From Octopus vulgaris (lineage: Eukaryota): a stretch of 64,000 bases of DNA. The notes under the pieces are model-generated. The model had not been told where the DNA came from. It did not search any database and saw only the letters and a list, made by a program, of their open reading frames with translations. Location: NCBI GenBank assembly GCA_951406725.2, contig OX597821.1, forward strand, positions 51,770,001 to 51,834,000, written 5' to 3'. A program made the position numbers and the translations under genes. Each line of letters begins with the position of its first letter. Positions within the stretch are counted from its first letter, which is position 1. Shown here in pieces: positions 2,525-64,000 of the stretch.

Positions 2525-2773
2525 TACTTAATCCAGTGAGAGATAAATATTATTTAAGCTACAAATAGTTTCATGCAGTGGAAATATAGTCTGCACAAGC
2601 TATAACAACACGCCTTGTGCCTCAAAGAGATTGGTTTTATGGATTGCTACTGCCCTGGGGTTTGTTTTCTTTTATCTCACTTAACTGAAAGAAATATGGT
2701 TGGCTTTAATGGTGTTATTGTAACCAATGGTTGCATCATGCCTGTAATCCTTGTAGGTTCTCAACTCCAATAT

Positions 2774-3196
2774 ATATCTCTTTATTGCCCACAGGGAGGC
2801 TAAACATAGAAGGGACAAACAAGTTCAGACAAAGGGATTAAGTTGATTACACCGACCCCAGTACGTAACTGGTACTTATTTAATCGACCCGGAAAGGATG
2901 AAAGAAAGGCAAAGTTGAATTTGGCGGAATTGGAACTAAGAACGGAACGGCAGACGAAATACCTATTTCTTTACTACCCACAAGGGGCTAATTACAGAGA
3001 GGACAAACAAGGACAGACAAACGGATTAAGTCGATTATATCGAGCCCAGTGCGTAACTGGTACTTATTTAATCGAACCCCGAAAGGATGAAAGGCAAAGT
3101 CGACCACGACGGAAGTTGAACTCGGAACGTAACGGCAGACGAAATACCGCTCAGCATTTCGCCTGGCACGCTAACGTTTCTGCCAGCTCGCCACCC
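2774..3196 (-). mobile_element. tRNA-derived SINE family A, tandem dimer
   Basis: Head ggtggcgagctggcagaaacgttagc on the minus strand, two bodies, flanking near-TSD tctca(a/g)ctccaatat. Confidence 0.88.
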
Positions 3197-3420
3197 TCTC
3201 AGCTCCAATATCAGCAATAAACTAACTGATTTAAAATGATATAATCGTTTTATTTCTTTGCTTCTTGCATGCTCGTTAAAGCCACTTCTAGTTTTCTATA
3301 ATTTCGAAGGTTATTTTTCAAAATACCGTTTATCCACCATTATTGGTTGGAATCATCATAATCGATGTATTGTCTCACCTGTTTGATATTTAACTGGAGA
3401 TGGCTGCTTATATTCTATGA

Positions 3421-3950
3421 TTTAGTCTATGAATATATCAATAAAATTGTACACAAACAGCTGTCATAAATTTTTAACCTCATTTCTTTTTTATACCTAC
3501 GCCACACTCGGAACCAACCCCAGAGTAGTATCTACAGTTTAATTTGGATTTGGATTTACATATCAGCAGTATTCCACTAACACTTCAGTGCTGGTTGTGC
3601 ATAGCCATTTCTAGCGCCCCACGTGTTGATGTGCGTAGATTCTATTGGATCTTATAACTAATTTGTATATATGTGTGTGTGTGTGTGAGTGTGTGTGTGT
3701 GAGTGTGTGTGTGTGTCCCACCGAGGATTCGCAATAGGTGCTGGTGTGTTTACATCGCCCACCACCGTAGCTTAGTGGTTCGCAAAATCGGCACGATTGA
3801 ATAAGCACACACATAACAGAACATACGGGAAAACATAGAAATTCCCATCCACACACGCATCCTTATTTATTTATATGTATGTGCATATATACATTTATGT
3901 GTGTGTATTATGTGAGGTCTATTTCCCTGTGGCTATCTATATGTCAACCA

Positions 3951-3982
<32 letters not shown>

Positions 3983-4062
3983 GCACGCACATCATAAATA
4001 TGAATATTTCTATATTTAAATACGCAGATATACGTATACATATGTATGTATATGTTTGTATA

Positions 4063-4112
<50 letters not shown>

Positions 4113-4495
4113 TAAAGTTACACACACATTTATATGTATGTATATATATGTATGTATATGTACATATATATATGTAAATATATATATGTATATATATAAT
4201 TATATATATATGTGTGTGTATGGGGGAATGGAAGGTAGATAGCCGAATGGTTTAAAATTTAACCATCTATCCTTATTTCAACGTCTTGGTGTGCCAGGCT
4301 GCGTAGCGTTGATTCCACTAGAGTGCGTGTATTTGGTATACTCAGCCACGTGCACGCTAATTTATGGAGCTTAGTATTTTAGGTGATCGACTATTCATTC
4401 TTGGAAATTCTGGCTGAGAGCCATCTATATGAAATAAACGAATCCTTATATATGTGTGTTGGATGTGTGTGTATGTATGTATGATGCATGTATGC
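3421..4495 (+). repeat. Copy 1 of a local direct duplication of about 1.05 kb
   Basis: Collinear with 6552-7590 from tttagtctatgaatatatcaataaaattg to gatgcatgtatgc. Confidence 0.92.
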
Positions 4496-4743
4496 GTGTG
4501 TGTATTAAGATATTATATATATATATATGCACATATATAGTTTTATATATATATACTTATCTAAGTATATATATACCTATAGTATAGCTATATATATATA
4601 TAGTATATACATATATTTATGTTTTATGTTCATGTGTGTGCATAGGTGAGTACATATATGTATGTACATTATATGTATTCACATCTACACCTCTGGAAAT
4701 ACGCACATATACAGACGCATATAAACACACATATGTGTATATA

Positions 4744-4808
<65 letters not shown>

Positions 4809-6551
4809 TGTACGTATATATGTTACACACATAGAAGCATATGTATACGAATAAATATATATGCATATATATATGCATATATATATGCATGTATATATGT
4901 ACATGTATACTTATATAGAATACACACACACACACACACTCATACACACATGCACAAACACACACGCATACAAGCATCTTAGTGTGAGTGCAAGGAAGAA
5001 GAAACCCCATTAGAAAAATCTTCCAACTTTTATTAACGTTGTATCCACTGACAATTTTCTACTTTATTCCCCTCTTTGCAATACATAAAATGGTTTTTCC
5101 TTGTTGATCGTATTTATCATCCACATCTGACATGATCATCAAAGACAGTGAAAGAACCAAAGTGTGAGGAAGGAGAGTCTGGGTTGAGGAAATGATGTTT
5201 AATAAAACGCCACATACTCCAACATTAATGCCACTTAACGGACATTATGAAACTTTCTACTGTATTAGTTACTCACAAACTTAATACGGTTTCTCTTGCT
5301 TTCTCTCGCCCATTTGTTCATGTGTTAGAGACAGAGCTGTAGCTACTTCTCTTATTGTGGTTGCGCTTCTTCTCCTCTACTGGGTGGAGGTGATAAAGGT
5401 GGAAGGAAGCTGTATCTAGATATATAACTAAGCAAAGGTCTTGTGAATATTCTCGACATAATTTACGTTTCCATTTGGAAATGGTAAATTGATATCTTCT
5501 TTACGTTCAAGCATCTACATATTTATAAGAGAGTGAGATTAAGGTTATATGACTGTCACACCTTCCTCGGTAATGTCAGAGCTGTTATAAATGTACTTGT
5601 ATTGTCTTCTACTGGGAATCGAAACCAACTCAATGAACCACGTGCTTTCTTTCCACCAAATAGAATTTATCACAGCTTGAATAGATATATTGTTGTAACA
5701 GTTGTTATTTATTTATTCGAACATGAATCTCGAAGCACATACAACTATAAAAAGCAGCATGTAAAATTGGGCTCGAAAACTCTTTTGGATTGAAAGTATC
5801 GAGGCTCCTCTCGACTTTTTTCTCTCTAAAAGTGTTTTTCAACCCAATATTTACGTAGTATTATTTATAGTTTGTGTTTCAAAATCCATTGTTTCAAAGT
5901 AGAACTACTTCACGTTCTCTCGAAGTTTCTAAATTCTTATGATGTCATCTACAGTTGTTATTGTTTAACTCCTGATCAGCCCTGATCTTGCAGACTACTG
6001 ATCAAGGGTGTTTCAGATGTGACCATCCTATCATTTCTTTCTCCCTGCACAATATATCTGAACACTACGATTCACATAATCAAATTATGCAAAAGACTGG
6101 AAGAATTATAAGTAATCAGTTGTTCAGCTCCGAAGAAGTTAGTTCTTTCGTGTGCATAAGTAATGTGTGACCTTAAGCACGTTAATTACCTTTTTCAGAC
6201 ACTATAAATGAATTGTCAATTCTTTTATGTTCTCGTCTACTATAGACTTAAGAATTTAGAACAGAAATTAAGTATTGTGGGCACCTCTGTTACGTCTTTA
6301 ATTCTGCCTAACTCCAAAGAAACCATTAGATCTACGAAAGAAATGAAACTTCGGTACCAACTTGCAAAAATGAGACTGTAGGACGTATTATAGACATAAG
6401 TTGGTGGTACCTACTTTCCACTAAGGTAGACTGTGGCACCTACTCATGTAGGAATACTATTGTATCTATTTTCTAAGTAATACTTAGCACCTATTAGATA
6501 GGTGAGATTATAGTGCCTACTTACAACTTAGTGGACTGCGGTACCTACTAA

Positions 6552-7210
6552 TTTAGTCTATGAATATATCAATAAAATTGTACACAAACAGCTGTCATAA
6601 ATTTTTAACCTCATTTCTTTTTTATACCTACGCCACACCCGGAACCAACCCCAGAGTAGTATCTACGGTTTAATTTGGATTTGGATTTGGATTTACATAT
6701 CAGCAGTATTCCACTAACACTTCATACCGTCATTGTTGTTTATCCCACTGTGAACTCAGTGCTGATTGAGCCTAGCCATTTCTGGCGCCCCACGTGTTGA
6801 TGTGCGTAGATTCTATTCGATCTTATAACTAATTTGTATGTGTGTGTGTGTGTGTGTGTGTCCCACCGAGGATTCGCAATAGGTGCTGGTGTGTTTACAT
6901 CGCCCACGACCGTAGCTTAGTGGTTCGCAAAATCGGCACGATAGAATAAGCACACGCATAAAAGAACATACGGGAAAAGAAAGAAATGCCCAACCACACA
7001 CGCATCCTTATTTATTTATATGTATGTATGTGCATATATACATTTATGTGTGTGTATTATGTGAGGTTTATTTCCCTGTGGCTATTTATATGTCAACCAA
7101 TACACACCACCACATACCATAGATATGAATATTTCTATATTTAAATACGCAGATATACGTATACATATGTATGTATATGTTTTGTATATGCATATGTGTA
7201 TATGTATATA

Positions 7211-7252
<42 letters not shown>

Positions 7253-7590
7253 CACACACATACATAATTTATGTATATATGCATATATTTGAGGGTGTAT
7301 ATATATGTGTGTGTATGGGGGAATGGAAGGTAGATAGCCGAATGGTTTAAAATTTAACCATCTATCCTTATTTCAACGTCTTGTTGTGCCAGGCTGCGTA
7401 GCGTTGATTCCACTGGAGTGCATGTGTGTTTGGTATACTCAGCCACGTGCACGCTAATTTATGGAGCTTAGTATTTTAGGTGATCGACTATTCATTCTTG
7501 GAAATTCTGGCTGAGAGCCATCTATATGAAGTGAACGAATCCTTATATATGTTTGTTGGATATGTGTGTATGTATGGATGCATGTATGCC
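6552..7590 (+). repeat. Copy 2 of the local direct duplication
   Basis: Same unique sequence and SINE remnants as 3421-4495; differs in microsatellite lengths and one indel of about 33 bp. Confidence 0.92.
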
Positions 7591-7924
7591 TATTAAAGAG
7601 GTGAAATGTATGCCTATTAAAGAGGTGAAACTGTGATAGTTATTTATAAAAGAGAGACTATGATAGTTATTTCAGAGCCGAAAGAGTGGTACTTAATTAC
7701 AACTAGGTATTGATAGTTATTGCCTGAAATCTAGACGAGTGAAACAGCACAACAGAGGGAGTCTTTAACCTACCAAATTGTCGAATGTTTGTCCGATATT
7801 CTATTACCTCCAACTTCACTTCCTTATTCGTTATGTTTTAATATTTTAATATGTGTGTTTATATATATATATATTCAATTTAGGAGTATTAGCTAGTATG
7901 TTCTTTGTATATTCCTTTATTCTT

Positions 7925-8290
7925 TTGTTTGTTTTTAGTCGTTTGACTGCGGCCATGGCTCGAGCACTGAATTTTAGTCGAAGAAATCGTCCCTAGGACT
8001 TATTCTTTGTAAACCTGGTATTTATTCTATCGGTCTCTTTTGCCGACCAGCTAATGTTATGGAAACGTAAGCACACCGACATCGGGGTAATAAATACAGA
8101 TACAAAGACACACACATAAATGCATATATACAAACACTACGGGCTTCTTTCAGTTTCCTTCTACCAAATCCACTCACAAGGCTTTGGTCGGTTCGAGGCT
8201 ATAGTAGAAGACACTTGCCCAATGTGCCACGCCGTGGGACTGAACCCGGAATCATGTGGTTGGGAAACAAATTTCTTACCACGACTTATG
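7925..8290 (-). mobile_element. tRNA-derived CORE-like SINE family B
   Basis: Reverse complement of gggttcagtcccac...ttgggcaagtgtcttctactatagcc...gtgagtggatttggtag and of the cagtcaaatgactgaaac-type tail. Confidence 0.85.
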
Positions 8291-8291
8291 C

Positions 8292-8349
<58 letters not shown>

Positions 8350-8713
8350 TTCAATACGGAGTAAATAATTCAGGAGAAAATATCTGCGAAGATATTCTTT
8401 TCTAGTCTAGGCACGAGGCGCGAAATTTTGGAGGAAGAGGCCAGTCAATTAGATTAACCCCAGTACGCAACTGGTACTTAATTTGTCGACCTCGGCGGAA
8501 TTTGAACTGAGAACGTAAAGACAGACGAAATAATATCTGCAAAGATATTATTGACTCTATTATTATCTAGTATAACAATTAAAAATTATAATAACAGAAT
8601 CAGTAATATAGGCGATTGCAGGCCTCCAAAAAGCATTAAATAGCTGAAGCATTAAAATTAATCGGACATACTAAGTATGTCTACCTGCTGAAAATAACAG
8701 TCAAAACTCTCAG

Positions 8714-8735
8714 GCATTGTGTGTATTTTTAGGAG

Positions 8736-8789
<54 letters not shown>

Positions 8790-8811
8790 CTCCTAAAAAT
8801 ACACACAATGC
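8714..8811. repeat. Perfect palindrome: 26-bp unique arms around (TA)n
   Basis: gcattgtgtgtatttttaggagtgaa-(TA)n-ttcactcctaaaaatacacacaatgc. Confidence 0.9.
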
Positions 8812-9227
8812 ACTCGCATACAGCACGCCTGAACACAGACAATATACACACGCACACAGCATGCATAAACACATACAACTTTCGCACATAAACATACATA
8901 ACGCATATGCACACTATACGGCCACACATACTTCATGCACTAACACACACGCGCACACACATATACACGCGCTCTCATACGCACACAGGCCCACATAATT
9001 TTAAGCATACATTCACAGGCGCTCGCCCCCATTTACACGTATACACTCACATACACCATACTTACAGAGACACACGCTTGCGCCTCCTAGTTCAGCCGGG
9101 CCACCGTTATTATCTCCCTTTCATTCACCTTTTTATATTTGGTCATTTCATCATGTTGAACCGTTAATCCTTACACATTTTTCCCACTCTATTTTTTCCG
9201 TTCTCCCTCCATTTTTTTTCCTTTCAA

Positions 9228-9266
9228 TCATTTCTGTCGAAGAGCGTAGGCTCGAAACGTCAAAGA
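9228..9266 (+). ncRNA. Minimal hammerhead-ribozyme-like motif with variant core, probable PLE terminal repeat remnant
   Basis: ttt-CTGTCGA-A-GAGC-gtag-GCTC-GAAA-C-GTC-aaaga; the core differs from CUGANGA. Confidence 0.55.
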
Positions 9267-10432
9267 CATTTCCATTATTCCTGAGCGTCAAACTAATACA
9301 CCTGCTTGTTATTCCCTCACCTGTCTTTATCTTTCGTTTTCAGTAATTTGAATTATATATATATATGCGCATGTATATATTATATATGTCAAATTTAAAA
9401 TTAAAGAATTAAGGTTTAGAAAGTAGGTGTTACATGCAGTATCCAAACCTTGTTTCAGGGTGAGTCCCCGGTAGTGTGCCTGCAAAACGCACCCACCAGG
9501 GAGCAGTACAATATGAAGCTGAACCGACTGTTGTACTAATATATGCTTCTGGTTACACTCCGTCTTCCGTATTAATATATTAAAGCACACACACACACAG
9601 GGAGAGAGAGAGAGAGATCCATTTGTCTGTATGCCTATCTCAGTCTATATGGCTATCTCCTATGTGTTCTACATTTCTATCTACTAATCTAGATCCATAT
9701 ATATATATGTGTGTGTGTATGTACCTGTCTGTCTATCTATCTATCTATCGATCTATCAATCCCTCCATCGATTTGTGTATAATTCGCTATATCTATTCAT
9801 CCATTTCAGTATCGTTGTATATGTCTTCACACTTTTATCAGGCAACCATCTTTAGTATTTCCCAACATCAAATAAATCGACAACAACTGAACCACTCACA
9901 TTCAGGACACCAATATCTGGTTTAGCCGGGCATTAGAAAAAGCACATCTTACTTCATTCAGTATTGAACCGAAATATCACTGAACTGGAAAACAAGAATC
10001 TCATTCTGTGTCAGTCGCGATTGTGGGTGTGTTGGAGATGACGCTAGTTCTTTAGTTAAAGGGGCAGAACAACAATATTAGTTCTGCCTCGACACTGAAA
10101 TAAGAGGCGACGTGTTGTCTATATTGGCTCTTAATTAGAACAGAAGAAATGTACTTTTGTTCTTTGTTGAAAACTGAAAATCGGGAATAAATATAATTTG
10201 ATCTTTTCCTATGTCAATTCCATCAATTTCATCGTCTTTTTTCTACAGTTCATTTTCTGAAACAAAAACCAAAAAAAATATGCCTTGTCTTTGAATAACA
10301 AGATTCATGTTTAAATTAGTTATACTAAGTCGTAAGTCATTCGAGAGTTTAAATACGTTTTTATACCGCTGGGAGTAGGGAATGATCAATTATGCTTTCA
10401 ACCTACGTGCGTCTATAAACACACACACACAC

Positions 10433-10466
<34 letters not shown>

Positions 10467-10915: not shown

Positions 10916-10963
<48 letters not shown>

Positions 10964-11065: not shown

Positions 11066-12023
11066 AACACACACACACACACACATATATATATATGAGA
11101 AAGAGAAATGACAAAGGAATAAACGATTATCTTATGAACTTCATTGGCTTACAACTGTTTCTGCTGTGGTCTATTCTTCTGCTTGTTTCAGTCATTTGAC
11201 AGCGGCCATACTGTAGCACCGGCTCAAAGGGTAGAAATCAACCCTAGGACTTATTCTTTGTAAGCCCGGTACATATTCTATCGGTCTATCGGTCTTCTAT
11301 CGATCTTCTATCGGTCTTCTATCGAAGAATTGCCATTAGAACAGCAGAAATACAAGGTAAATTACCCTTACAAAGCATAAAAATTCATATACACATAGTT
11401 ATCCATTTAGCTATTTTAGCTATTTAGCTTCTAAATTTGTGGTAAATTTGTCAAGGGGCAGTTTAGCTTAAAGGTAAGACACTCCGCTAGAGTCTCGAGG
11501 GATTTGAATTCGAGTTCTATGGCTGTTTGTTCACAAATATTTCCGATTTGGAATGGTAATTTACTCAGTATTTCTGCTGTTTTAACTGCGTTCGGAAAAA
11601 TATCTTATTTGCATCGTACAATATAAATATATATATATTACTGATTTACTCTCTAATGCAAGACATAAACCTCTTAATCTTGTTTATATATTTACCATGT
11701 TTATTTATTTCGCTTTTCTTTTTTCCACCCACACCCACTAAATATTGTTTTTAATAATTCTAACAAAATACAAAATTCATAATGAGATAATTCTACAGAA
11801 TAATGGAATTACCGATCATTTAAATTAAAGAGGAAGATATTAAAACTGTATGATAAAATTTATATATTAATATTTCATAACACATTATTATAACGATTTA
11901 AGGGATGTTTAATTTTCAGAGGGAAAATATGCAATGAAAGGTGAAAAAGGAATTTGTTAGATGAAGTGATAATGGGATAGAGTGAAATAGACAGAAGTGA
12001 TAGCAACAAAGATTGATTCAAGG

Positions 12024-22034: not shown

Positions 22035-22543
22035 TTTGACTGGTACTTAATTTATCGACCTCAAAAGGATGAAAGGCAAAGTCGACCTCAATGGAATTTG
22101 AACCCATAAATTAGCGCCAGGCGAAATACCTATTTCTTTACTACCCACAAGGGGCTAAACACAGAGGGGACAAACAAGGAGAGACAAACGGATTAAGTCG
22201 ATTACATCGACCCCAGTGTGTAACTGGTACTTATTTAATCGACCCGGAAAGGATGAAAGGCAAAGTCGACCTCCACGGAATTTGAACTCAGAACGTAGCG
22301 GCAGACGAAATACCTATTTCTTTACTACCTACAAGGGGCTAAACACAGAGGGACAAACATGGACATGCAAACGGATTAAGTCGATTACATCGACCCCAGT
22401 GCGTAACTAGTACTTAATTTATCGACCCCGAAAAGATGAAAGGCAAAGTCGACCTCGGCGGAATTTGAACTGAGAACGTAACAGCAGACGAAATACGGCT
22501 ACGCATTTCGCCGGCGTGCTAATGTTTCTGCCAACTCACCGCT
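22035..22543 (-). mobile_element. SINE family A tandem trimer
   Basis: One head and three bodies, joined twice by cgaaatacctatttctttac (about 22125 and 22310). Confidence 0.9.
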
Positions 22544-32779: not shown

Positions 32780-33150
32780 TTAGTATAGAAAGCGCTGCTA
32801 AGTTTGCAAAAGATATGTGTGCCTTGCCAACCTGTCGCCATCAACTTCAACGCAACAAGCCATTCATTACTCGTTATCAGTTGCAGCATCTCCGCACACC
32901 TTGGTTCCACATACTCAACGAAACAAGGAACAACGTTTCATATTCGAACTTAGTACCATGTCACCGACAAGTTTAAATGAACGCCATTCCTTTTACTCCT
33001 CCATCTACCCTTATTTGAGCAATCTCTTTTTTATTCTTCAACTTCCTTCTCACCTTCACCTTTTCTCATTTATTCTCATTTCCTTTCCCTTTTCTCCTAC
33101 CTTTTCACCAAATTACTCTCTATTCCTATTTTTTGTTTACGTATGAAGTT
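32780..33150 (+). mobile_element. Penelope-like element GIY-YIG C-terminal remnant
   Basis: RNKEQRFIFELSTMSPTSLNERHSF resembles the PLE terminus EQxxIFxLxTxxPxGLNxxF; pyrimidine-rich UTR follows. Confidence 0.7.
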
Positions 33151-33377
33151 CATATGGTCTTGCATTCCTCATCAGTTGCAGCCAGTTTCTCATAGACATG
33201 CAACGCAAAACTCGCCTGTCTTTGTCTAATTTCACTGCTATCAACTTTTCCCTAAAGATGAACTCCATCCGAGACGTTGGATTTCCTACAACCCACGGCA
33301 GTTTCACTGTGCATTTTTTGTCGATCTTTCTAAATCACACATACATTTATACATATATATTTATACATATATATACA

Positions 33378-36620: not shown

Positions 36621-37905
36621 ACCTTCTTTCAATTCTGTTTCCATTTCTTGCCGAGTGTCTTCCTGACACCTAGGGCTGGGGAACGTACTGTATACATTGG
36701 TAGGCCATTAAAATAAACACACCAGATCGTTCATTCACGAAGTCATGTGATAGAGAAAAAGGAGAAGACAGCGAGATAAAGAAAAAATAACAAGTAAAAA
36801 AATAGACAAATAAAATAAAGAGGGAGAGAAAAGAAAAGAAAATTCACAGCGACACTGCCCTTCTCAATACCAGTTAAGACAATCTTTTGCACTTCCTGCA
36901 TGGATGAAAATAATTTTCAGTTCCTTTTTTGATCATTCTCAGTGCTCCTACAATCATTGATATTGTAACTGTCTTGAGATGCAACATCTTTTCGATTTTG
37001 ATTAGCAAATCTTTATATTTTCTGAGTTTATCAAATTCTTTTCCCGTGATATTATTGTCACAGGGTATGTTCATATCAATCAATAAACAGATTTTATTGT
37101 TTTTGTCTTTCACAAGAATATCTGGTATTTGCTTTGATTGTCTGGTTTGTACATACCGGGAAGTCCCAAGGAATAGTTACATTTTCTCCCTCAATTTTAT
37201 AATGCCGACACATTATCCAGTATAGATATTGGCCAACTGAGTCATGTCTTCATTTGTGCCCTACAGGAGCTAAAACCTTACATACAGAGATTAGGTGGGC
37301 CATTGTTTCTATCCAATCGATAAAGTATCGGCATTTTGGGTCTACACCATTTTTCACCACATTGGCTTGATAGTTCCAGGTCAATAAGCTTGGGCAGACA
37401 AAATAAAGCCTTCACTCACTGTCTTTAGCTCTGGTCTACATCAGCTTGTTTGCTACGGGCCACATATTTACCATGCAGAGCTTTTTGTTCCCACCTATCC
37501 ACCAATTATTCAAACGCATTTTGCTTTGCTATTGGTTTCACTTTCTTTGCAACTACAGTTGCTGCACTTCCATCAATGCTGTTCAACCTGCATTAAGTCA
37601 CTTGAAACTTTTTTGATCTCCATAACAGAATGAATCTTCTTGCGTCTTTCATGGTTTTCAACGAGCGTTAGCATCCAGTCGTTAGATGTTTCAAGATATC
37701 TTGCCAGTCCAGTTGTGGTAGTTTTGCAGATTTCAGATTGGATCAAGCCTCGACTTCCTTGAGCTCTGGGTAGGTAAAGTCGATCTGCGTCTGCTTTTGG
37801 ATGGTGCATCTTACTGCAAGTCAGCAGCTTACGGATTTTCCTATCAATCTTCCTTATTTCGCTCATATTCCAGTTCAACACATTGAAACTGAAATAGCAG
37901 CCATA
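36621..37905 (-). mobile_element. 5'-truncated R4/Dong-clade non-LTR retrotransposon (restriction-like endonuclease)
   Basis: IDRKIRKLLT..MHHPKADADRLYLPRAQGSRGL (post-RT) and KPDI..KDK..CLLIDMNIP.D.N...KE..K..KYKDL...IVGAL (RLE); the 3' end abuts a (TAC)n(TAA)n array. Confidence 0.88.
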
Positions 37906-38364
37906 CTGTGTGTATTATTTAAAAAAATATATATGTATGTATATGTATGTATATTTATATGCACACACATATCTATGTGTGTATATATACATATATATAT
38001 ACAGTCAATTTTAAAAATACAGATAAAAAAACAAACAAACGAACGTGGAGACATCGCATAAGTAATGTTTTAGTATGACGCTCAGAGAAAGAGGAGAGTA
38101 GTTGTTTTACGTTTCGAACATAGCTCTTCGGAAACAGGGAAAACAGGAAAGTCCAAAGGGAAAGAAGGAAGAACGAAAAAATCGCCAATAGTCCACGTGA
38201 GGTTACATTTCTGAAGGGACCAGAAGTAGAAGGAGGAGGAGAAAGTGCTTTCTGGGACAGAAGAGTCTGAAGACAGAAGGTGCGTGCGTGTGTATGTGTG
38301 TGTTGGTGTGTGGTGTGTCTGGTAGCCTTTGCGTGTGGTAGCCTCTGTGTGTGTGTACGTGTGC

Positions 38365-38419: not shown

Positions 38420-38834
38420 CGATAGCCTGTGTATATATGGTAGCACGTATGTGTGGCAGTAACTATACGCACGCGCGCATGTGTGTACGTGAGCGTGTGA
38501 GCGTGTGCGTGTGTGCGTGTGTGCGTGTGGTGGTAATTGTGAGTGTGTGTAAGGGTATGAGTGGAAGCGTGTATGTGCTATTAACTGTATGTGTGCGTTT
38601 GTGTTAACTTTAAGTGTTTGTGTTTGTATGAGAAGTATGTGTGTGTGTTTGGGGAGATTCTTTCCTTCATTTAGTTGATGGAGTTCCTCGTCTTTCAATT
38701 TCATTTTCTAATCTCCATCTATATTCTGAAGAACAACCATATCTGAAACGTCGTAATTAAATCTTTCCACTTCTCTGAACATCAAACTATTAATATTTTT
38801 CATAAATCTATCCCGAGTTGTTTTCGTTTACCTC

Positions 38835-45467: not shown

Positions 45468-45468
<1 letters not shown>

Positions 45469-45598
45469 TTTATTTAAAGCAGCAGAAAATTCAACAAAAT
45501 CTGTTACTCTGAATTTCTCGTTGCCGTTCATCAGATGAACGGCAACGAGAAACTCAGAATAACAGATTTTGTTGAATTTTCTGCTGCTTTAAATAAAG
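45468..45598. repeat. Hairpin with arms of about 65 bp made of two opposed hammerhead-bearing PLE terminal fragments, in (TA)n
   Basis: Arms are near-perfectly complementary; the minus arm reads CTGATGA-acg-gcaa-cga-GAAA-ttcagaGTA-acag. Confidence 0.8.
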
Positions 45599-45667
45599 CA
45601 TATTACTCTACCACTGGTATTTGAGTACTCTTTTTTCCACCTTGTTTCACATTTATGTGGTTACTCC

Positions 45668-45707
<40 letters not shown>

Positions 45708-49519: not shown

Positions 49520-50374
49520 GTAAGTTTAATCAGATGCTATTTTTCCCAACTCAATATGACGTTCGACGATTGTGTCAAGGGAAATAACTCTAAAAGTTTA
49601 AAAAGTTTATTTAGAGTAATTTCCCTTGGACTGCAACGTTTTTTGACTACATGTCATTTGTTGAATGACGTTGATTTAACAGTTACAGATACCAGCCGAT
49701 AATTTATGGTTTCAGTCAATGGAAAAGAAAAAAAAACACCATTGTCATGATCGTCCTCGTCGTCGACTTTAAAAATGAGGCATTTGTTGTATATTGTGGT
49801 TTTGGATTCCTGCACCAAGGAAAAAAATCGGACTCCATACCTGGAATGCATTTAATCAAGGCGAGCCTAGGGCTAAATAATTGATTAATTTATTTATTGT
49901 TTCGCTTCAGATCAACCCTGATTGAACAGGAGAGAAAGGTTGCTGCTACTAATGAGTTACAACTACATAGAGATCCTTATATTGCTTCACTTCGTGCTCG
50001 CGTTTTTTTTTGTTTTATTTTTTTTTTTTTCTCTTATTGAATATAAAGAGATAAAAGATTTAGTGGGCTTATTTGAGGATTGAATATAGAATATTTAGTA
50101 ACCGAACACTATTAATATTGTTTTAAAAAAAACGCTATAGGATATAACGTCAGAGGTAGCCTATATAAAGAGGAGGGATAAAGCATATATATAAATATAT
50201 ATACATATATATATATATATGTACACACACATATGTATATATATATATATATATAAGTTTAACAATTAAGGATAACTTCTTAATAAGGGATCTTAACAAG
50301 AAATTATCAGGTAGTTAGCGTGAAAACCTCATAAAAGAAAAGAATTCGAAAATAATTTTTTTCCTTTGAACAAA

Positions 50375-50637
50375 TTAATTATATCTATATTGTATAGAGG
50401 GCATTAATACACATAAATGCCTCACACTAAGAGGGACAAAGTCATTACTACCAAAATTACACTAATCATAATTACACTAATCATGCAGTTCTTCAAAGCA
50501 AGACATTTAAAATGTCTTGCTTTGAAGAACTGCATTTAGGTATGATTAGTGTAATTTTGGTAGTAATGACTTTGTCCCTCTTAGTGTGAGGCATTTATGT
50601 GTATTAATGCCCTCTATACAATATAGATATAATTAAT
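50375..50637. repeat. Long hairpin (arms about 125 bp) adjoining (TA)n
   Basis: ttaattatatctatattgtatagagggg...gcaagacattt / aaatgtcttgc...ccctctatacaatatagatataattaa. Confidence 0.92.
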
Positions 50638-51560
50638 ATATATATATTTTTTTTTTTTATTTGAGAACAGGGAAATGAATAGTACTTATACGCTGCTTAA
50701 TTGAGGCTTTATTTAATTTCAAACTCATAATTTTAAATTCTTACTTTTAAATCTTAATTGTAATTTGTAATTTTAATTCCTAACTTAATCTAATTTAAGT
50801 AGCATAACTCTAATAAAATAAAATGAGTTACTATAGCCCCATAATTCTATTTCAAAATTAAATAAATAAGGCTACTCCCTCGGTGATAATATGATTATCT
50901 TCATTATGATAGACAATCCCCTAACACCTTGTAAATGATCTTCTAAGATTTGACCTGTAGTCCGTCAATGTATGAATAATAAAGGCAACTCCTTAAGACA
51001 ATATAATGAATAAATTAAATAAGTAAACTTTAATGACTTTTTGATAAGATTATACTTAGATTTTCCTAATGTATTTTCTTTTGATTTTAGCATCTGACCC
51101 CTAAACCCCTGACTGTGTTATCTCTTTAGATTCTCTTTAAATTCATAGCTGATTTCAACAGCAATAAATTAGCTGTTTTACTGGTCAAAGAATAATATTC
51201 TCCTCTAGTTCCTAGATGCCTGTAAATTAAAACCAGACTTGCCGTCTGCTAATTCTTCTGTATAACTAGAACCCTCTTTTTTTCTTTTTCTTTTTCCCTT
51301 CTTTCCCTATTTCTTTCTCTTTTTTCTCTTTTTTCTTTTTCTTCTTCCTATTCTCTTTTTCCTTTTCTCTTCTCTTTTAGTCCCTCTCCCCCCCCTTTTT
51401 TGCTCCCTCCTCCTTTATTTTCTCTCTTTTCTTCTATTCCCTCCCCTTTTCTATTCTTTGCCTCTCTAGAAAGCCCTTCAGCCTTTAAAAGTTAAATAGC
51501 TACAGCCTCTTGTAAATAGCAGTAATGTGATTAATGTGGCAAATACCTAATCATATAACA

Positions 51561-51846
51561 AGAATTGATACCTACCTCATTGTGTTCAACCATTGATAAA
51601 TTTATCGCCTGTGAATATGAAATTCCTCTTCATTTCTCTGGAAATTTACATCTACACCATTGGAAATTGTGCATCTATACAAAGGATTAATTCACCCTCT
51701 CTGTAATGCTAATAAGCAGGAATTGAGACCCACCTCGTTGTGATTAACAATGGATAAATTTGTCGTCTGTGAGTATGTAATCCCTCATCATATCTCTGGA
51801 AATTCATATGTGCACTATGGATTAGGTCACCTTCTCTGTGATGCTG
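51561..51846 (+). repeat. Diverged tandem duplication, unit about 155 bp
   Basis: gaattgatacctacctcattgtg... repeated as gaattgagacccacctcgttgtg... Confidence 0.8.
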
Positions 51847-51991
51847 TTAAAACTTTTTTAAAATTCTGTGATAAGACTGTACATCATCTTTAAAGAACTT
51901 TAATGAACTTTGGAAATCTGTTTATGTTACTTAATTATCTACTTCATGAGTATAGCCTCAACCAATAGGATGTCTAGAGAACTCACATGTA

Positions 51992-52082
51992 TTTTAGCTG
52001 ATGAGTACAGGACACGTTTATATGCTGTAATTTTTGCAACTTTTAATAAAGCCTGTCCTTGTATGAAACGATTGTACTAAAA
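51992..52082 (+). ncRNA. Type I minimal hammerhead ribozyme (PLE-type)
   Basis: Stem I ttttag/ctaaaa; core CTGATGA 51998-52004; stem II gtacaggaca/tgtcc(t)tgtat; GAAA 52065-52068; minimal stem III C-gatt-G; cleavage triplet GTA ending at 52076. Confidence 0.72.
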
Positions 52083-52799
52083 ACCTATCCATTCTTGTTG
52101 CTTCTTTCTCACGTATATATATATATATATATAAGTACACACACATGCATATATGTATTTATGTATGCATATAAATATATTTATGCACACAAACACACAC
52201 ACACATGCACATACACACACAGAAGCACCCACACAAATATCCATTGTGGCACTAGAATTAATGGTGTGAGTTTAGTTAATGAAACTTACCCCAGAAAAGT
52301 CTGAACTCTCAATATAAAATATTGTCAGTTAATATCATGAGTTATCTAGCTGCGTGTGCTGTTCCTGCTCTCTCATCAATTTATCAAAACGTTATTCTTA
52401 ATAACCCCCCAACCACACCATCATCAGTATCTGGTTGGTATATATATATTATAGATCCCTCTCAAGTGAGATGAAACATAAAGTAGTGCCTATTTTATAT
52501 GTAACAGAACATGGCTAAATACAGCAGTGGTTTGGACTTTTTTTTTTTTTTTTACCTGAATCTATCAATTAGATTACTTCGCAGTAATCAAAGTTGTAAA
52601 AATCTGCTCTTATAGTTAACCTAATATTGTAGGGCTCATCGTTTTAGAAATCCATCCATATAAACCATGATTATCCATCTTTAAAATCACCCCTATGATA
52701 ATCCAACATTATAGCTATTGTTAAGCATTGGCAACAAGTCTAATATAATAAGAGATAACCTATAAAACACTAATGAACTCACAAATCTAAGGTGGTGTG

Positions 52800-56019: not shown

Positions 56020-56585
56020 TGTAAAAAGCACCTTTCGAGTGTTGGGCCTCATGGAGGCAATGACAAATGACTGAGACCTTTGGCAATATGTTGTACTTGA
56101 GAAGAAGACCCATCGAGACAAGTGAAATCATAGTGCTTGCAGACACTGGTGTCACGCAACTGGCACATGTGCAAATGGCATGTAAACACACCCATTACAC
56201 TCTCAGAGTTGTAGGGTATTAGGAAGGGCATTAAAGGGTATTAAAAGGCGGCAAGCTGGCAGAAACGTTAGCACACCGGGTGAAATGCGTAGCCGTATTT
56301 CGTCTGTCGTTACGTTCTGAGTTCAAATTCCGCCGAGGTCGACTTTGCCTTTCATCCTTTTGGGGTCGATAAATTAAGTACCAGTTACGCACTGGGGTCG
56401 ATGTAATCGACTTAATACCTATGTCTGTCCTTGTTTGTCCCCTCTGTCTTTAGCTCCTTGTGGGTAATAAAGAAATAGGTATTAGGAAGGGCATACAACT
56501 GTAGAAACAATGTCAAATCAGACTGGAATCTGGTGCAGCCCCTCATCTTACCAGCCTTGGTTAAACTGCCCAACTCCTGCCAGCA
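56020..56585 (+). mobile_element. Family D repeat (RTE-related SINE body) split by a family A SINE
   Basis: ggtattaggaagggca...gtagaaac...cagactggaa.ctggtgcagc is shared with 60760-60980. Confidence 0.7.
56246..56477 (+). mobile_element. Young SINE family A with 16-bp TSD
   Basis: TSD ggtattaggaagggca at 56215-56230 and 56478-56493. Confidence 0.95.
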
Positions 56586-56778
56586 AATTAAAAAGAAAGA
56601 AAAAAAAAAGAAAGCTGAAAATATATTATAATATAATATAAAATTACAATATTATATAAGATTAATATTAGAAACAAACTGGTTTCATATTTTTGTTCAA
56701 GGCCAGCAATTTTGAGGAGTGAGTAAGTTGTGAGCCTCACAGTTCACTGCCTTTCTTTTGTATAGATATTGTTAACAT

Positions 56779-57187
56779 TAGGCACAGGAGTGGTAAGTAA
56801 CTTGCTTACCAACCACATGGTTCCGAGTACAGTCCCACTGCGTGGTACCTTGGGCAAGTGTCTTCTACTATAGCTTCGGGCCAACCAAAACCTTGTGAGT
56901 GGATTTGGTAGGCGGAAAATGAAAGAAGCCTGTCGTATATATGTATATATATATATGTGTGTGTGTGTATGTGTGTGTACATGTTTGTGTGTCTGTGTTT
57001 GTCCCTCCGACATCGTTTGACAACCGACGGTGGCGTATTTATATGCCCATAACTTAAAGGTTCAACAAAAGAGACCGATAGAATAAATACTAGGCTTCCA
57101 GGGAATAAGTCCTGGGGGCGATTTGCTCGACTAAAAGGCAGCGCTCCAGCATGGCCACACTCAAATGACTGAAACTAGTAAAAGAGT
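56779..57187 (+). mobile_element. Full-length SINE family B
   Basis: Collinear with the other family B copies. Confidence 0.9.
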
Positions 57188-57571
57188 ATCATAATAATCT
57201 GAGATTGATTGATAATTCGGCTGATCAATAGTCTTTTCTTTTACTGAAAATATACTTCTTCCCTATTTTTCTTCTCTCCTCTCTCTCTATTTTCCCTATT
57301 GTTTCTCTCTTCCTTTCTCCCTCCTTCTCTCTCTCCCTCTAACTCTCTGTCTCACACACACACACACATACACACATACATGCACACATACACACATATG
57401 CACACACATGCACACACACACACACATCAATTTTATTTATTTATTTATTTAATTTGTCGATAATTCAACTTATTTATTAACATGTGAAATTTGAATAATT
57501 TGAATTAGAGTTAAACATAAAACTCCTAGAAGCTCTCTCAATCTTTCTCTTCGTTATTATTATTATTATTG

Positions 57572-57619
<48 letters not shown>

Positions 57620-57624
<5 letters not shown>

Positions 57625-57810
57625 TCAAATCTTGGTTCAAGGCCAACAGTTTCAATGGAGGGATAAGTCAATTACAATGACCCCAATTTATTTTATCGAC
57701 CCCAAAAAGATGAAAGGCAAAATCGACTTCGGAAGAATGTGAAATTAAAACGTAAAGACAGACAAAATGCTGCTAAACATTTTGCCCAGCATGCTAACGA
57801 TTCTGTCACC
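57620..57810 (-). mobile_element. SINE family A (short tail) between (ATT)n and (AAT)n arrays
   Basis: ttatcgaccccaaaaagatgaaaggcaaaatcgac core. Confidence 0.8.
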
Positions 57811-57835
57811 TCAATACCCTAATAATAATAACAAC

Positions 57836-57870
<35 letters not shown>

Positions 57871-57914
57871 TAACAACAATAACAATAACAACAATAACAA
57901 TAATAATGATGATG

Positions 57915-57967
<53 letters not shown>

Positions 57968-57989
57968 CACCACTGTTTAACATACAATG

Positions 57990-59220
57990 ATTAGATGTCA
58001 CAATAAAAGATGCTGAGTCAGGAATAGTAAAATAAGATAATTTCAAAGTTGGAAATTCAAAGAGTATACTTTGTAAGGTTGTTTTTAGCTGTAGAGAATA
58101 AGGAAGATTATACCATGTTATCTTTTTTTTCCCCCTTTTTTTGTTATTATCAAATATTAGTTGAGTATTGTTAGTTGGATGACAAGCCTCTTTATTTGCT
58201 GTAGATGATAAGTTAACAGTAAACATTTTAACAATATTATTTAATCAAGAGAATTAGTAGAATTTTATTGATTTATTAATAATATTAATATTCTACCCCT
58301 CTAAGTTTTATATACTACAATTATTGTTGCTATAATACTAATGATTAATATATGATATTTGTGGTCTATTTCTACACCTGGAAACACTAGTAACATTTGA
58401 GTGTACTTAATGACAAACAGTTTCTACTTTTTATTTACTCTGTTTATTATTTATCTGAGCATTTACATATGTTGGTAAAGTGCTATTGAGATTATTACTA
58501 AATGTGTTACATGTTTTAGATGAAAATTTAGAATTATAGAGATTATCTGTGGTATTATAGAAGTATTTCTTGTATTCCTACACTTAAGAAACACAGGTTC
58601 ATCATTAAAGCTTTTATGAATAATAGTGAGAATATTTATTAGATTATGTATCACCTTCAGTTTAGTATAATACTGTAGATATATCTATCAATGCATTATA
58701 ATCACTTCACATAAAAGTATCATCTTACTAGGATGTACTGTCATAAAAAATTCTTTCAGTGACTGAAAGATCTGAAATACTAATTGAAATAATCTTAAAT
58801 ATGTAAGCATCTTTTATAGATTAAGGGTGGTTAGAAATTTTACTTGTATAGCATAAACCTCTGTTAAGTACATTATAGGGATTTAAATTTAGAGTAGCAT
58901 CAAGGAAATTAATAATTTTTATATTCCTTCTAAATGTGATAGTGATTATCATTCCAAAAGTATTTATTAATGGCATTTTCAAGTTGTCTGATAAACTTAG
59001 ATAAAGAGCAATAAAAAAACTGTTGTAAGAACCTTAATCATTACAATATAAACCTCCATTCATATATAGGAAATTTCTATTTCATTTAAATAAGAAAAAA
59101 TTATCCTACTAAATCTGTTTCCTGGGCTGAATTAGATGGACCCATAATAGTATCAAAATTATGAGAACTGGATTTTGAAGTCTAAGAATAAGTTCTGGAA
59201 TAAGATTAGTGTATTTCTAA
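57990..59220 (-). mobile_element. Heavily decayed Penelope-like element
   Basis: Minus-strand FDTIMGPSNSAQETDLVG and GGLYCND (PLE RT motifs FDVTMGS.D.AE..ELVG and GLYRDD), KRGKKKITWYNLPYS (WFNPPYS-like), and a GAAACtgtttGTC hammerhead half near 58420. Confidence 0.7.
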
Positions 59221-59249
59221 CTGCTAATATTATGTGCATATACAAAGCT

Positions 59250-59460
59250 GTGAACTGGCAGAACTGTTAGCACACCGAGCAAAACGCTTAGTGGCACTTT
59301 GTCAGTCTTTACATTCTGAGTTCAAATTCCATCAAAGTCAACTTTGACTTCCATCCTTTCAGGGTAAATAAAATAAGTACCAGCTGAACATTGGGGTTAA
59401 TGTAATTGACTTATCCTCTCCCTTCTAAATTGCTGGCCTAGTGCCAAAATTTGAAACCAA
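59250..59460 (+). mobile_element. SINE family A (short tail), degenerate
   Basis: gtgaactggcagaactgttagcac head; gtgccaaaatttgaaaccaat tail. Confidence 0.82.
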
Positions 59461-60759
59461 TATTATTCACCTGCTTGCAAATTCTTGTGGGCAAAGGCAT
59501 AGGTTCAATCCCACTGTGTGAATACTGTTGGTTGGTGTTTTCTACTATTGCTAAAGGCTGCCCAATCTTTTCTGATTGGGATTTAGATATGGAAACTGGA
59601 AGAATCACATGGTGCATGAGTACATGCTTGTGTGTATGTGTATATAAATGTGTGCATGTGCATGAGTGTGAGTGAGTGAATATATATTCCCCATTTTTGA
59701 CAGGTGAATGTTGACTGGAAGCAAAAGTGGCTACTTGTAGACAGTGTACACATATACATACACACACACAAAAGTCTGCCTGTGTGTGGGTATGTATGTA
59801 TGCAAATGTGAGTATGAGAGGGGGTTTGGATGCCTGATGTGTGAAAACATAACAATAAAGATGTCACAAACATCCCTGATGCAGGTCTTTACTGACAAGG
59901 AGCAATAAGACCAAAACATGTCTTGCATTGTCACTGTAATCTGTCCATGATGAGACTTATATGCCACTAGTTTAGATTAAACTACATGCATACATACATA
60001 CATACATACATGTATCTATCTATGTCAGTCCATCAGCCCATCCATCCATCCTTTTCTGTCATTGGTCAATAGTATTGCAGAGGCAGTAACCTAGCCACCT
60101 CTGCTGTGCCTGTGCTGTTTCCAGAAGCAGACATCTAGCTCCAAATATACTTACCCACTCTTCACTCAGGAAAACACATCACAAAGGAAAGAAAACACAT
60201 CACCAGTCAACACATTCACAACATCCATGGAGCTCCAGGGAATGCCAGATACATAGCTGTCTAATGATCTCACCCCAAAGATTTTCTGTGTGAGTTTTCA
60301 CCCTTAGCCTTTTTTTAAATACTCAACAAATCGCCCACAAGGCAGCAGAGATATATTATAATGGACATGGTTCATGCAGAGCCAATCCCACTCTGTTGTT
60401 TTTCAAATGTGTATTGATCTGGTGCAACAAGTGTCACAAGCCCAATAGTTATCAGGATGCAGGCTTTGTATAGAGTTCTTTTAGATGAGCAGTTAAAGAG
60501 CTGAAGGATCTTATCTTCCTTGAGTTCATTGAAATGTTTGTGAATGGTCCCCTTCCAGTGATAACTCTGTGACATGCCAATTAATCCATAGCTAGGACTT
60601 TGACCAGAACTACTACTCTGGGGCAGGGTAAACCTGCAGACAATATTGGCTAAGAGCTACTACCACACTCCTCACCCTAACCCTAGTCCTCAAAACCCTA
60701 GAACCCTTGAAGCTGAGTTCCGCAAATGGATGTAGTTTATTTAGAGTCATACTCATGTA

Positions 60760-60980
60760 GGAGCATTCATGCCAGTGGCATGTTAAAAGCACCCAGCAGA
60801 CTCTGTAAAGTGGTTGGTATTAGGAAGAGCATTCAGTTATAGAAACCAGGCCAAGTCAGACTGGAACCTGGTGCAGCTTCCCAGCTTCCCAGCTCTGGTC
60901 AAACCATCCAACCCAAGCCAGCATGGAAAACAGACAAAAAAATGATGATGAAGATGATGATGATGATGATGATGATGATG
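60760..60980 (+). mobile_element. Family D repeat 3' end with (GAT)n tail
   Basis: ...ccaacccaagccagcatggaaaacagac...(gat)n, an RTE-like tail. Confidence 0.75.
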
Positions 60981-61172
60981 ATATATAACAAAAGAGGAAA
61001 GTGGAAACTGTTTTTGATATTATACTCTGGTACACATGTTTCATTTGCTAATAGGGATTACAAGATTTTTACATGTTAGACATGTAAAGAATTGTCTATT
61101 AGAAATTCTTCAAACAGAGAAAAAAATTATAATGTGTGTGTGTGTGTTACATAATTATTTTCTGCTAATCTT

Positions 61173-61203
<31 letters not shown>

Positions 61204-61319
61204 TCCTTTCTTTCTTTCTCTCTCCCTTCTTCTCTCTTTTGGTTTCACCTATTCTTTCAATATTCAATTTTCCAACTTCTCTTGTTCTTTTACCCTTTCT
61301 TCCCTTATTTGTTCTATTT

Positions 61320-61350
<31 letters not shown>

Positions 61351-62725
61351 ACATTTCTATTATTTATCTCTTTCTTCCTTTCTTTCTCTCTCTTATAATC
61401 ACACACACACACACACACAGTATATACATGTATGTGTGACTGCATAAGTGTATGTATTAGCTTATACATGTGATATGTTGTAAGATGTTCTACTGTACAC
61501 GATGTGGCATGCATCTAAATGTCTCTGTATGTTTGTATGGTGTTTATGTATGTGTATATGTACTTGTTCATACATACATACATACATACATACATGCATA
61601 CACACACACACCCATTTACATAAACACATATATGCATATAAAGTGGTACCATTGTGTATATGTACATCAGACTACAGATGACAAATTACATATTCATAAA
61701 CAAACACATAAAAACACATGCATGTGTGTATGTATACACACACACACATACATATATATATGTGTATACATGTGTATCTATATGTGTGTGTGTTTGTTGG
61801 TGTGTGCGTGTACATATGTATGAGTACATGTATTCATACATACCATACAAACACATGCATAGACATTTAGATTTATGCGCATACGGATAATGATCTCAAT
61901 CAACATCTCTATCTTCCCACCTTCACTCATTCCCTTCCTGTTTCCGCTCCCTCACTCAATCCCTCCTTCTCTCTCTCCCTCCCCATCTCTCTTTCTCTCT
62001 CTCTCTTTCCCCTTTTCTCTCTCCATATTTATGTATGTATGTACATCTCTACTTCTCTCTCCATCCCTATGTTATAATTATATCCATCAATCAATGCTAC
62101 AGCCAGTAATTCCTGTGTGAAGTTCTGTTGAATATATTGGTAACTGATGAGAGGGGATAGTTTTGGTCACACTTAACAATTCCAACAATAGCAACAACAA
62201 CAGCAACCACAGAAATCAATTTACTCTTAACAGCAACAGCAACAACAACAACATGTGTTATACATTATTTGTTTGGTTCCATTTATTTTTCTTATTCACT
62301 TAGTTTTCATTAAGTGTGGGTTGTATAGGTCTGGAATGATACATATTGACATGGTTAAATACATGGTTTTACAGTTGCCCTTCCATCTGTCCAATGAAGA
62401 ACAAGGTTATTTGGAGTCATCTTTGTTGTTCTCCAAATACATCATACATACTATATCTTATACATTACAGACACCTCATACTACATTCAAGACATACCAC
62501 AACTATTATATCACATACACTAGACATACACTACCAACTACATCCTACATCCAATGCACTACACATTCCACGCATAACATACAATGTCTTATACACTGTA
62601 TACATGATATGCATTTCCCACACAACATACCACATACTACACTCCACTCAGTCATACAGAGGACACCTTACATACTGTATCCCACACACCACACATACCA
62701 TATCCTGATTGTGATCATGCTGGTG

Positions 62726-63400
62726 TAGGCATGAGTGTGAGGTAAAAGGTTTACTTTCCAACCACAGTTCTAGGTTCAGTTCCACTGCATAGCACCTTGG
62801 GCTAGTGTCTTCTACTATAGCCTTGGGACAACCAAAGTCTTGTGTGTAGTTTGGTGGATGGAAACTGAAAGAAGCCTATCATATATATATATATATATAT
62901 ATATATCCTTCACCTTGACTGACCAGTCCATCAGGTGTCCATTTGACTCCGCTGGTCACAGCACGCTGTCTACTCCTCTCTGGATTGCGCTTTCCTCATC
63001 CATGTGATCCCAATCACCCTCCTGAAATCGTAACTCCACCGTCGTGGAGGCCTTTTGAGTGGTTGTCTCTGCTAGCATGGGTACCACTCAACAACTGCGT
63101 GGGTCCACCAATTATCGGAGAGCCAGGTGATGTGCCCAGCCCATCTAAACTTGCTGCGTATATATGCTACATATATATATATATATACATACATGTGTGT
63201 GTGTGTCTTTGTGCTTGACAACCGGTATTGATATGTTTACATCCCTGTAACTTAGTGGTACAGCAAAAGGCCAATAGAATAAGCACCAGGCTTTAAAAAA
63301 ATAAGTACTGGAGTTGATCAATTCATTTAACTAAAATTCTTCAAGGTAGTGCCCCAGTATGGCCAGAGTCTAATGACTGAAACAAATAAAAGATAAAAGA
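62726..63400 (+). mobile_element. SINE family B with a LINE fragment in its internal (TA)n
   Basis: 5' half 62726-62880, 3' half 63200-63400. Confidence 0.85.
62906..63158 (-). mobile_element. RTE-clade LINE 3' fragment
   Basis: Minus strand RSKFRWAGHITWLSDNWWTHAVVEWYP...KRPPRRW. Confidence 0.82.
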
Positions 63401-63619
63401 TACTGATCTATCATCAACAATATTCCAGCCATGACATACCAGGGAGCATGTGTCTTTTTTTTATAAATGGTAGTGAAGGGAGAATTGGCTACTCAAGAAA
63501 GTCATTGAAGCTTCCATACTAGCTCTTTTTGATAGTACTACATTGATGATCCCTTTTTTCAGTACCACTGTTTTATTGTGATGACCTCTTTTTTACATTA
63601 CTTAGTACTCCTCTTTACA

Positions 63620-64000
63620 TTATTTACATTCGATGGATATTTGTCCTCATCTTGTTTGTTGTTAACACGTTTCGTCTAATATACCCTCAAGCCTTCTCAT
63701 TCCTAAGGTATTTTTCGATGTTATTGTTCAGCTCACTGCTTGGAATCGAACTCGGAATCTTGGGGTTAGTAGCCTGTGCTCTTAACCACTATGCCATATG
63801 CCCGTGGGCAATTATGAAGTGATTTTAGGGCTTATAAATCTAATATTTTTCTATTCTATATTAGATTTATAAGCCCTAAAATTCTCTCCATAATTGCCCA
63901 CGGGCATATTGCATAGTGGTTAAGAGCACAGGCTACTAACCCCAGGATTCCGAGTTTGATTCCAAGAAGTGACCTGAGCAATAACAATAACAATAATAAT
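63620..64000. mobile_element. Palindromic element: two divergent tRNA-like heads, with a hammerhead 3' half on the left arm; cut by the window end
   Basis: 63720-63845 and about 63860-63985 are inverted; the head gcatagtggttaagagcacaggctactaaccccaggattccgagtttgattcc has A and B boxes. Confidence 0.7.

Follow-up and report, generated by a model that had tools for sequence, protein, structure and literature searches.

The 64-kb window analysed here (64,000 nt of Octopus vulgaris contig OX597821.1, positions 51,770,001 to 51,834,000) carries hammerhead ribozyme motifs at ten sites listed in an earlier note, together with remnants of Penelope-like element (PLE) proteins; its repeats have a cephalopod-like character. 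Every sequence string named in that note was re-located in the window at its place. We judged each site through its genomic relatives, sought across 227 contigs (2.8 Gb), with the window on one of them, and fetched family copies as 3-kb loci (L-numbers). Nine of the ten sites map to families with the full hammerhead fold, whereas the site at 58410-58430 does not. Complete type I copies, with CUGANGA, GAAA, an NUH cleavage site and stems I-III, are present at 51992-52082 and in families B, D, F, H, I and K. Only two copies in the window are complete, those at 51992-52082 and 9231-9265, and most window copies cannot be active ribozymes. Very probably the motifs represent 3′ ends from some ten dispersed repeat families, each with a type I hammerhead.

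Table 1. Hammerhead motifs and associated element features in the window.
Positions	Strand	Feature	Details
2557-2577	-	Family F, Hydra-type hammerhead 3′ half, 5′ core lost	6 copies found
3392-3470	+	Family G, decayed hammerhead, long stem II	Partial duplicate at 6582-6601
9005-9352	+	Family C, Neptune-type PLE 3′ end closing at (TA)n	Neptune-type endonuclease upstream in related loci
9231-9265	+	Family C minimal hammerhead	A6U core CUG-U-CGA, extra A, 4-bp stem II, ACGU stem III
11146-11168	-	Family H, hammerhead 3′ half, 5′-truncated	Family core CCGAUGA; relatives compared
32802-33020	+	Family K, C-terminal remnant of PLE GIY-YIG endonuclease	Translation; same frame end in related loci
33248-33281	+	Family K decayed minimal hammerhead	Missing from earlier note; majority of 15 loci
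38103-38136	-	Family D minimal hammerhead	Core CCGAAGA in the family; 3 core nt missing from the window copy; family alignment
38721-38757	+	Family E, decayed minimal hammerhead	10 old copies
45468-45669	.	Family B, fold-back stub flanked by (TA)n tracts	Inversion junction within hammerhead core; one-sided 65-nt tail
50655-52114	+	Family A, 5′-truncated PLE 3′ end closing at (TA)n	98.4% to near-full-length L031
51992-52082	+	Type I hammerhead, complete (family A)	6-bp stem I, CUGAUGA, long stem II, 8-nt self-complementary stem III, GUA site
57990-59220	-	Decayed Hydra-type PLE open reading frame	Encloses 58409-58426; tblastn to L031 protein, E 2e-4; translation
63664-63696	-	Family I hammerhead remnant	35-nt deletion removing 5′ core; relatives compared
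63728-63803	-	tRNA-like segment, A-box and B-box-like motifs	Upstream of family I hammerhead

Four families are tied here to PLE proteins, and the remaining families are likely PLE ends too. Endonuclease (EN) ends lie upstream in families C, K and I, and the protein remnants reported earlier are borne out, at 32802-33020 and 57990-59220, by translation and comparison. Hammerheads in family copies and linked PLE open reading frames (ORFs) likewise support the proposal that several ribozyme-bearing PLE families inhabit this genome. The hammerhead lies about 50-130 nt from the element 3′ end, and insertions are 5′-truncated, in many cases accompanied by an inverted partner and a tail on one side only; because the motif is 3′ and truncation is 5′, almost every stub holds a whole or partial motif, which later decays. 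At 2557, 3452/6582, 11146 and 63664, described before as core-less 3′ halves, other family copies indeed show the missing 5′ core, along with both stems. The insertion structure of EN+ PLEs (5′ truncation, inverted partner, one-sided tail) is seen in families A, B and I, and the inverted partners with one-sided tails of 121 or 65 nt match the PLE tail signature, which favours the PLE reading. Six of the ten element ends fall, by eye, within 10 nt of a (TA)5+ tract, and positions no more than 30 nt from such a tract make up 7.5% of the window; a location at (TA)n, as proposed earlier, is frequent.

Cervera and De la Pena (2014, PMC4209133) had already reported dispersed minimal type I hammerheads in the pseudo-long terminal repeats (pLTRs) of metazoan PLEs, with many families in each genome. 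The motifs seen here share with those PLE hammerheads an extra nucleotide after A9, a loop III that is palindromic or missing, dispersed copies that mostly stand alone, pairs on opposite strands and the large number of families. Most of the observation holds, and most of it is biology already known; the scatter itself is ordinary. The locus flanks, a repeat-biased sample of 623 kb, hold 46 complete hammerhead parses, compared with 0-5 in eight shuffles; 12 of the 46 are family A partners and the remainder come from roughly twenty further designs. The hammerhead content of the window is evidently typical of the genome. Two flank parses carry a compensated U3-A8 core.

Family A is represented in the window by a 5′-truncated copy of 1.46 kb, whose hammerhead was identified as complete in the earlier note and is recognised as such by the strict descriptor. 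Its palindromic stem III suits cleavage as a dimer, as had been suggested: two RNAs of this site co-fold with a minimum free energy (MFE) structure that is exactly the dimeric hammerhead (-34.6 kcal/mol). The best 40 of 1122 candidate copies are all identical over 171 nt, and the family is very young. In the near-full-length locus L031 (contig C4), two hammerheads in direct orientation, 4,599 bp from each other, enclose an ORF for reverse transcriptase (RT) and GIY-YIG endonuclease, and an inverted hammerhead copy lies on the 5′ side. This ORF is split into two frames, and its RT and GIY-YIG Pfam hits are both under the cut-off. The protein has RWK, DKT, CxCx5C, CxxC and CxH motifs, together with a GIY-YIG domain at its C terminus. 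Since these motifs match the marks given for the Hydra clade in PMC8557442, we assign family A by them to that clade.

Hydra-clade PLEs with hammerheads at (TA)n have been published, including the octopus element Hydra-1_Obim (Craig et al. 2021, PMC8557442). Besides the protein motifs, family A shares with them the targeting of (TA)n and a canonical hammerhead near the 3′ end. It differs in its 4.6-kb unit (Hydra PLEs are described there as "generally under 3 kb"), its Asn-rich insert, long stem II and 121-nt tail, and in a hammerhead unlike that of Hydra-1_Obim, which marks it as a new family. The Asn-rich insert is long and lies at L031 3400-3900, between the RT thumb and the linker; the pLTR of L031 holds a 107-nt internal repeat. 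Among 30 copies picked by the sequence downstream of the cut site, all extend across it, and the closest 5′ start is 5 nt upstream. The 121-nt tail is found on direct copies and is mostly missing from inverted partners. Together, the crossing of the cut site and the one-sided tail fit internal initiation on uncut RNA. Immediately upstream of the window copy, between TA tracts at 50256-50637, lies a second fold-back stub; it belongs to a different family, is extended on one side and shows no canonical core.

The families had been called unrelated. There are indeed several, but the sites at 9231, 38103, 38721 and the previously unlisted 33248 (families C, D, E and K) share one design: a pyrimidine tract, then a minimal hammerhead that has one additional A, a stem II of 4 bp and ACGU as stem III. 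At the site listed as 9228-9266 a complete hammerhead is present, but the core register first given was 3 nt off, which concealed an A6U variant; in that register, which we rejected, stem II has only 1 bp and stem I is absent. Similarly, the minimal hammerhead on the minus strand at about 38100-38135 is real, but its core had been read 3 nt out of register, hiding a 3-nt deletion. The motifs at 9231 and 38103 are homologous, with a compensatory change in stem I. Related loci of family C have a Neptune-type endonuclease upstream in three of six examined, with an RT-EN frame in L394. The MFE co-fold of family C RNA is a different dimer rather than the hammerhead, and the ACGU duplex contributes only -1.7 kcal/mol.

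Complete parses were obtained in 8 of 20 family D loci. Locus L118, considered as a family D unit, was set aside; its two copies 3.4 kb apart are a local duplication without an ORF. The site at about 38725-38755 is likewise a minimal hammerhead, although a decayed one: the majority of the 10 old family E copies shows the core and stem II, and none parses completely. In family K, the hammerhead follows the endonuclease remnant, and L220 parses complete. Antisense to the family K ORF, the minus strand at 33167-33189 holds a 23-nt block in which GAAA shortly precedes CUGAUGA. This block is unchanged in eight genomic copies, including the divergent subfamily L226, and crossing complementarities surround it. 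Tried as a permuted (SGC) hammerhead, it misfits at stem II, and one pairing is better on the sense strand; it is either a permuted hammerhead or a sense-strand structure.

Alignment of family C with family D fixes the register, and with it the family C core as CUG-U-CGA, in which U replaces A at position 6 (A6U). Position 6 is T in 38 of 41 scorable copies, three of 44 having no anchor. The A at core position 6 that is part of the type I definition is therefore missing, whereas the other core positions and the stems are present, and we file the motif, by sequence, as a putative A6U variant of type I. The U6 lineage holds at least 19,023 copies, the number of exact-pattern matches genome-wide, compared with 14,147 for A6 in the same frame and 0 for the reversed patterns used as controls. 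In a 60-copy tree, built from the first 30 matches per pattern and midpoint-rooted only, U6 takes one change (support 96/92), and three A6 copies that share its loop are its neighbours; the variant forms one clade of Neptune-type PLEs. Core position 7 is A, C, G or U depending on the subfamily, and stem I pair 4 is C-G in 25/30 U6 copies and G-C in 21/30 A6 copies. Two of the 20 family D copies, L089 and L090, also have T at position 6, which may represent a second origin of A6U.

The U6 lineage has been active recently. In its youngest subfamily, which carries a Neptune-type RT-EN frame, all 40 scored copies are identical over 112 nt. A Pfam search with the L394 frame gave no hit; compared by eye with the rows of Fig. 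S2 in PMC8557442, the frame shows a CX2-5CxxC linker before a C-terminal GIY-YIG domain with CCHH, and by this linker and endonuclease criterion family C would belong to the Neptune clade. Between the window family and the young subfamily, both chosen without a core pattern, 2 of 36 motif positions differ (N7 and H17), as against 21 of 76 downstream (28%; binomial p 9e-4 on majority sequences, one flank and an assumed uniform rate). Because the motif is far less diverged than its flank, we infer that the fold is under purifying selection in the master lineage, and the U6 lineage is likely under selection to keep a hammerhead fold. Among young copies picked by downstream sequence, 26/30 carry the U6 core; in the remaining four, truncation falls inside the core or beyond it. 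As with family A, nearly all (29/30) extend across the cut site, as expected from the in vitro work on Poseidon_Ac (Frangieh et al. 2024, PMC11167929). In 31 loci scored by eye, among 100 listed of 441 matches, six 5′ starts lie at the cut site and five at a TA microhomology 15 nt upstream.

It is about as likely as not that the A6U hammerhead has no catalytic activity: a founder mutation would have been tolerated because copying does not need cleavage, and the motif kept for a role of its sequence or structure, such as protein binding, splicing or promoter function. Published data on A6C describe a hammerhead that is very slow in Mg2+, with a rate of about 4e-6 per min in one ribozyme, and works in Mn2+; PLE insertion in vitro is reported to be unaffected by hammerhead core mutants. 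The copies that cross the cut site are also consistent with a dead motif, as are the conserved U6 loop II and the polypyrimidine tract that precedes the motif. Against this, the compared U6 subfamilies vary at no motif position other than N7 and H17, and H17 remains A, C or U, as a catalytic motif would require; this point comes from the subfamily comparison, since the genome-wide patterns fix H and cannot show it. Rather less likely is that the lineage uses a working hammerhead with U at the otherwise nearly invariant position 6, the first such natural variant, rescued by dimer formation, element protein or another metal ion.

A literature search that did not cover the variant list of Lünse 2017 turned up no relevant natural A6U or U6 variant, and in the searched parts of the PMC4209133 supplement (file 1 not covered) "CUGU" occurs in stems only. 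The core variant of PMC4209133 is U3-A8, whereas here we find U4C families and the A6U lineage. The nearest likeness is the natural A6C hammerhead of phage Bcep176 (PMC3088659, PMC7151607), also a position-6 substitution; that one is C at a single phage locus, and the one here is U in a large, recently active animal retroelement lineage.

In family B, hammerhead material had been placed on both strands at about 45500-45570. It is there, but as a fold-back that lacks a full stem I on either strand; the stub folds as one hairpin (-93.9 kcal/mol). The junction lies in the core at 13 or more of 25 loci, and the other loci join up to about 30 nt upstream. Junctions at the hammerhead 5′ core recur in several sequence variants (L032-L056), which suggests a hotspot or an RNA start just upstream. 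Complete parses were found in 15 of 55 loci, a few of them from other families; RT and EN fragments lie near one copy, with linkage that is not clean. The hammerhead has the Hydra-type layout of File S2 in PMC8557442. In family F one of six copies (L083) parses completely, in family H three of 12 loci do, and in family G none of 12, although the majority there shows all parts. A local duplication of about 1.1 kb (window 3420-4495 and 6551-7589, 84% identical) includes the family G pair at 3452 and 6582. A linked RT-EN ORF was not found in the fetched 3-kb loci of families D, E, F, G and H.

For the unlinked families F, G, H and perhaps B, an alternative is that they are non-autonomous retrozymes or elements resembling short interspersed elements (SINEs), borrowing PLE enzymes. 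The missing ORF link of F, G and H would fit, animal retrozymes have been proposed as PLE derivatives, and family I copies cluster at a tRNA-like start. However, 5′ truncation produces the same picture as non-autonomy, the layouts match published Hydra pLTR hammerheads (PMC8557442), and head-to-tail tandem arrays with hammerheads, expected of the retrozyme families once suggested here, occur at none of the sites. We therefore regard this alternative as rather unlikely.

In family I the order is endonuclease end, tRNA-like segment, (AAT)n and hammerhead; the endonuclease end is presumably of Penelope/Poseidon type, and the segment carries A-box and B-box-like motifs. ARAGORN called no tRNA in 12 of 12 loci. 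Complete parses number 4 in 42 loci, and the inverted partner of the window copy, with a core, sits just past the window end. When copies are chosen by their 3′ part, 17/30 start within 10 nt of the start of the tRNA-like head and 0/30 reach the ORF; with 5′ ends at a tRNA-like RNA polymerase III head, as in tRNA-derived SINEs, the short copies would qualify as such. A T4 run falls within the tested segment in 9/30 copies. A tRNA-like head inside a PLE 3′ region, with most short copies starting there, resembles a PLE-moved SINE; a literature search for PLE-mobilised tRNA SINEs turned up nothing relevant. Schistosome SINE-like hammerhead repeats and animal non-LTR retrozymes (PMC6765202; bioRxiv 10.64898/2026.07.22.740005) similarly have a promoter followed by a hammerhead, and PLE ancestry has been proposed for them. 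Unlike those systems, there are no tandem arrays here, and the family I head lies in the PLE 3′ region after the endonuclease end.

That the scatter consists of chance matches of short motifs in AT-rich repeat DNA is refuted for nine of the ten sites and very improbable overall, given the full-fold families, the reversed controls and the compensatory stem I change, even though bare CTGANGA cores number 17 in the window against a shuffled mean of 23.8, an Rfam scan shows no hammerhead in the best 150 of 465 rows (microsatellite-driven ones), and the tenth site is itself a chance match. That site, 58409-58426, proposed as a 3′ half, was ruled out as a ribozyme remnant by its position inside the decayed Hydra-type ORF, in coding sense. 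With bare cores below their shuffled count, cores offer no basis for judging the scatter; the strict type I descriptor, at its strictest setting, finds one window site (51998) and none in 60 shuffles. A parser that also allows U6, introduced only after family C had been seen, finds two (9234 and 51998; shuffled mean 0.18, two or more in 1/100 shuffles). The 3′-half motif (63 versus 33.6 shuffled) is not used as evidence, as abundant SINEs may contribute to it. Single-strand folding of the motif RNAs did not recover monomeric hammerheads, as expected for dimer-type ones.

Several points weigh against our reading of the motifs as PLE ribozyme ends. Site-specific cleavage is a prediction from folds throughout; families D, E, F, G and H have no ORF tie and B a loose one, and some may be non-autonomous; no fetched copy of family E or G is complete. 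Family I variants without the 5′ core (7 of 12 loci in a query-biased sample) spread anyway. For the A6U lineage, changes at A6 are strongly deleterious in Mg2+, so that U6 may be dead; the binomial p depends on the assumptions given with it, and the copies in the tree were drawn with patterns in which the core and stem II are held constant.

Drawing on the PLE literature, we envisage that in an intact pLTR-ORF-pLTR unit the two hammerheads would join via their palindromic stem III, with slow cleavage that may be aided by element protein, which PLE hammerheads may need in order to cut. Copying would begin in the downstream tail on mostly uncut RNA. Consistent with this, the insertions here resemble those of Poseidon_Ac in vitro (PMC11167929), with one-sided tails and continuity across the cut site, although the tails are 65 and 121 nt rather than 30-40. 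In the Neptune-type A6U lineage the retained fold would serve as a ribozyme that is slow or assisted, or else as a binding structure for element protein.

PLE hammerheads cut slowly and insertion in vitro seems not to need them, but most clades retain them; the A6U lineage sharpens the question of their cellular role. If U6 cuts, the natural catalytic core is widened and protein or metal assistance is indicated; if it does not, selection keeps the fold for a non-catalytic role. If U6 works, its A6 sister lineage, residing in one genome with it, would provide an internal control for what PLE hammerheads do; matched A6/U6 sisters together with a near-intact young Hydra element make testing cheap.

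Elsewhere in the window, open frames at 36874-37914 resemble what we take to be pieces of a non-LTR retrotransposon RT and endonuclease, and an abundant SINE is present in tandem at 22039-22496 (period 183, 2.5 copies).

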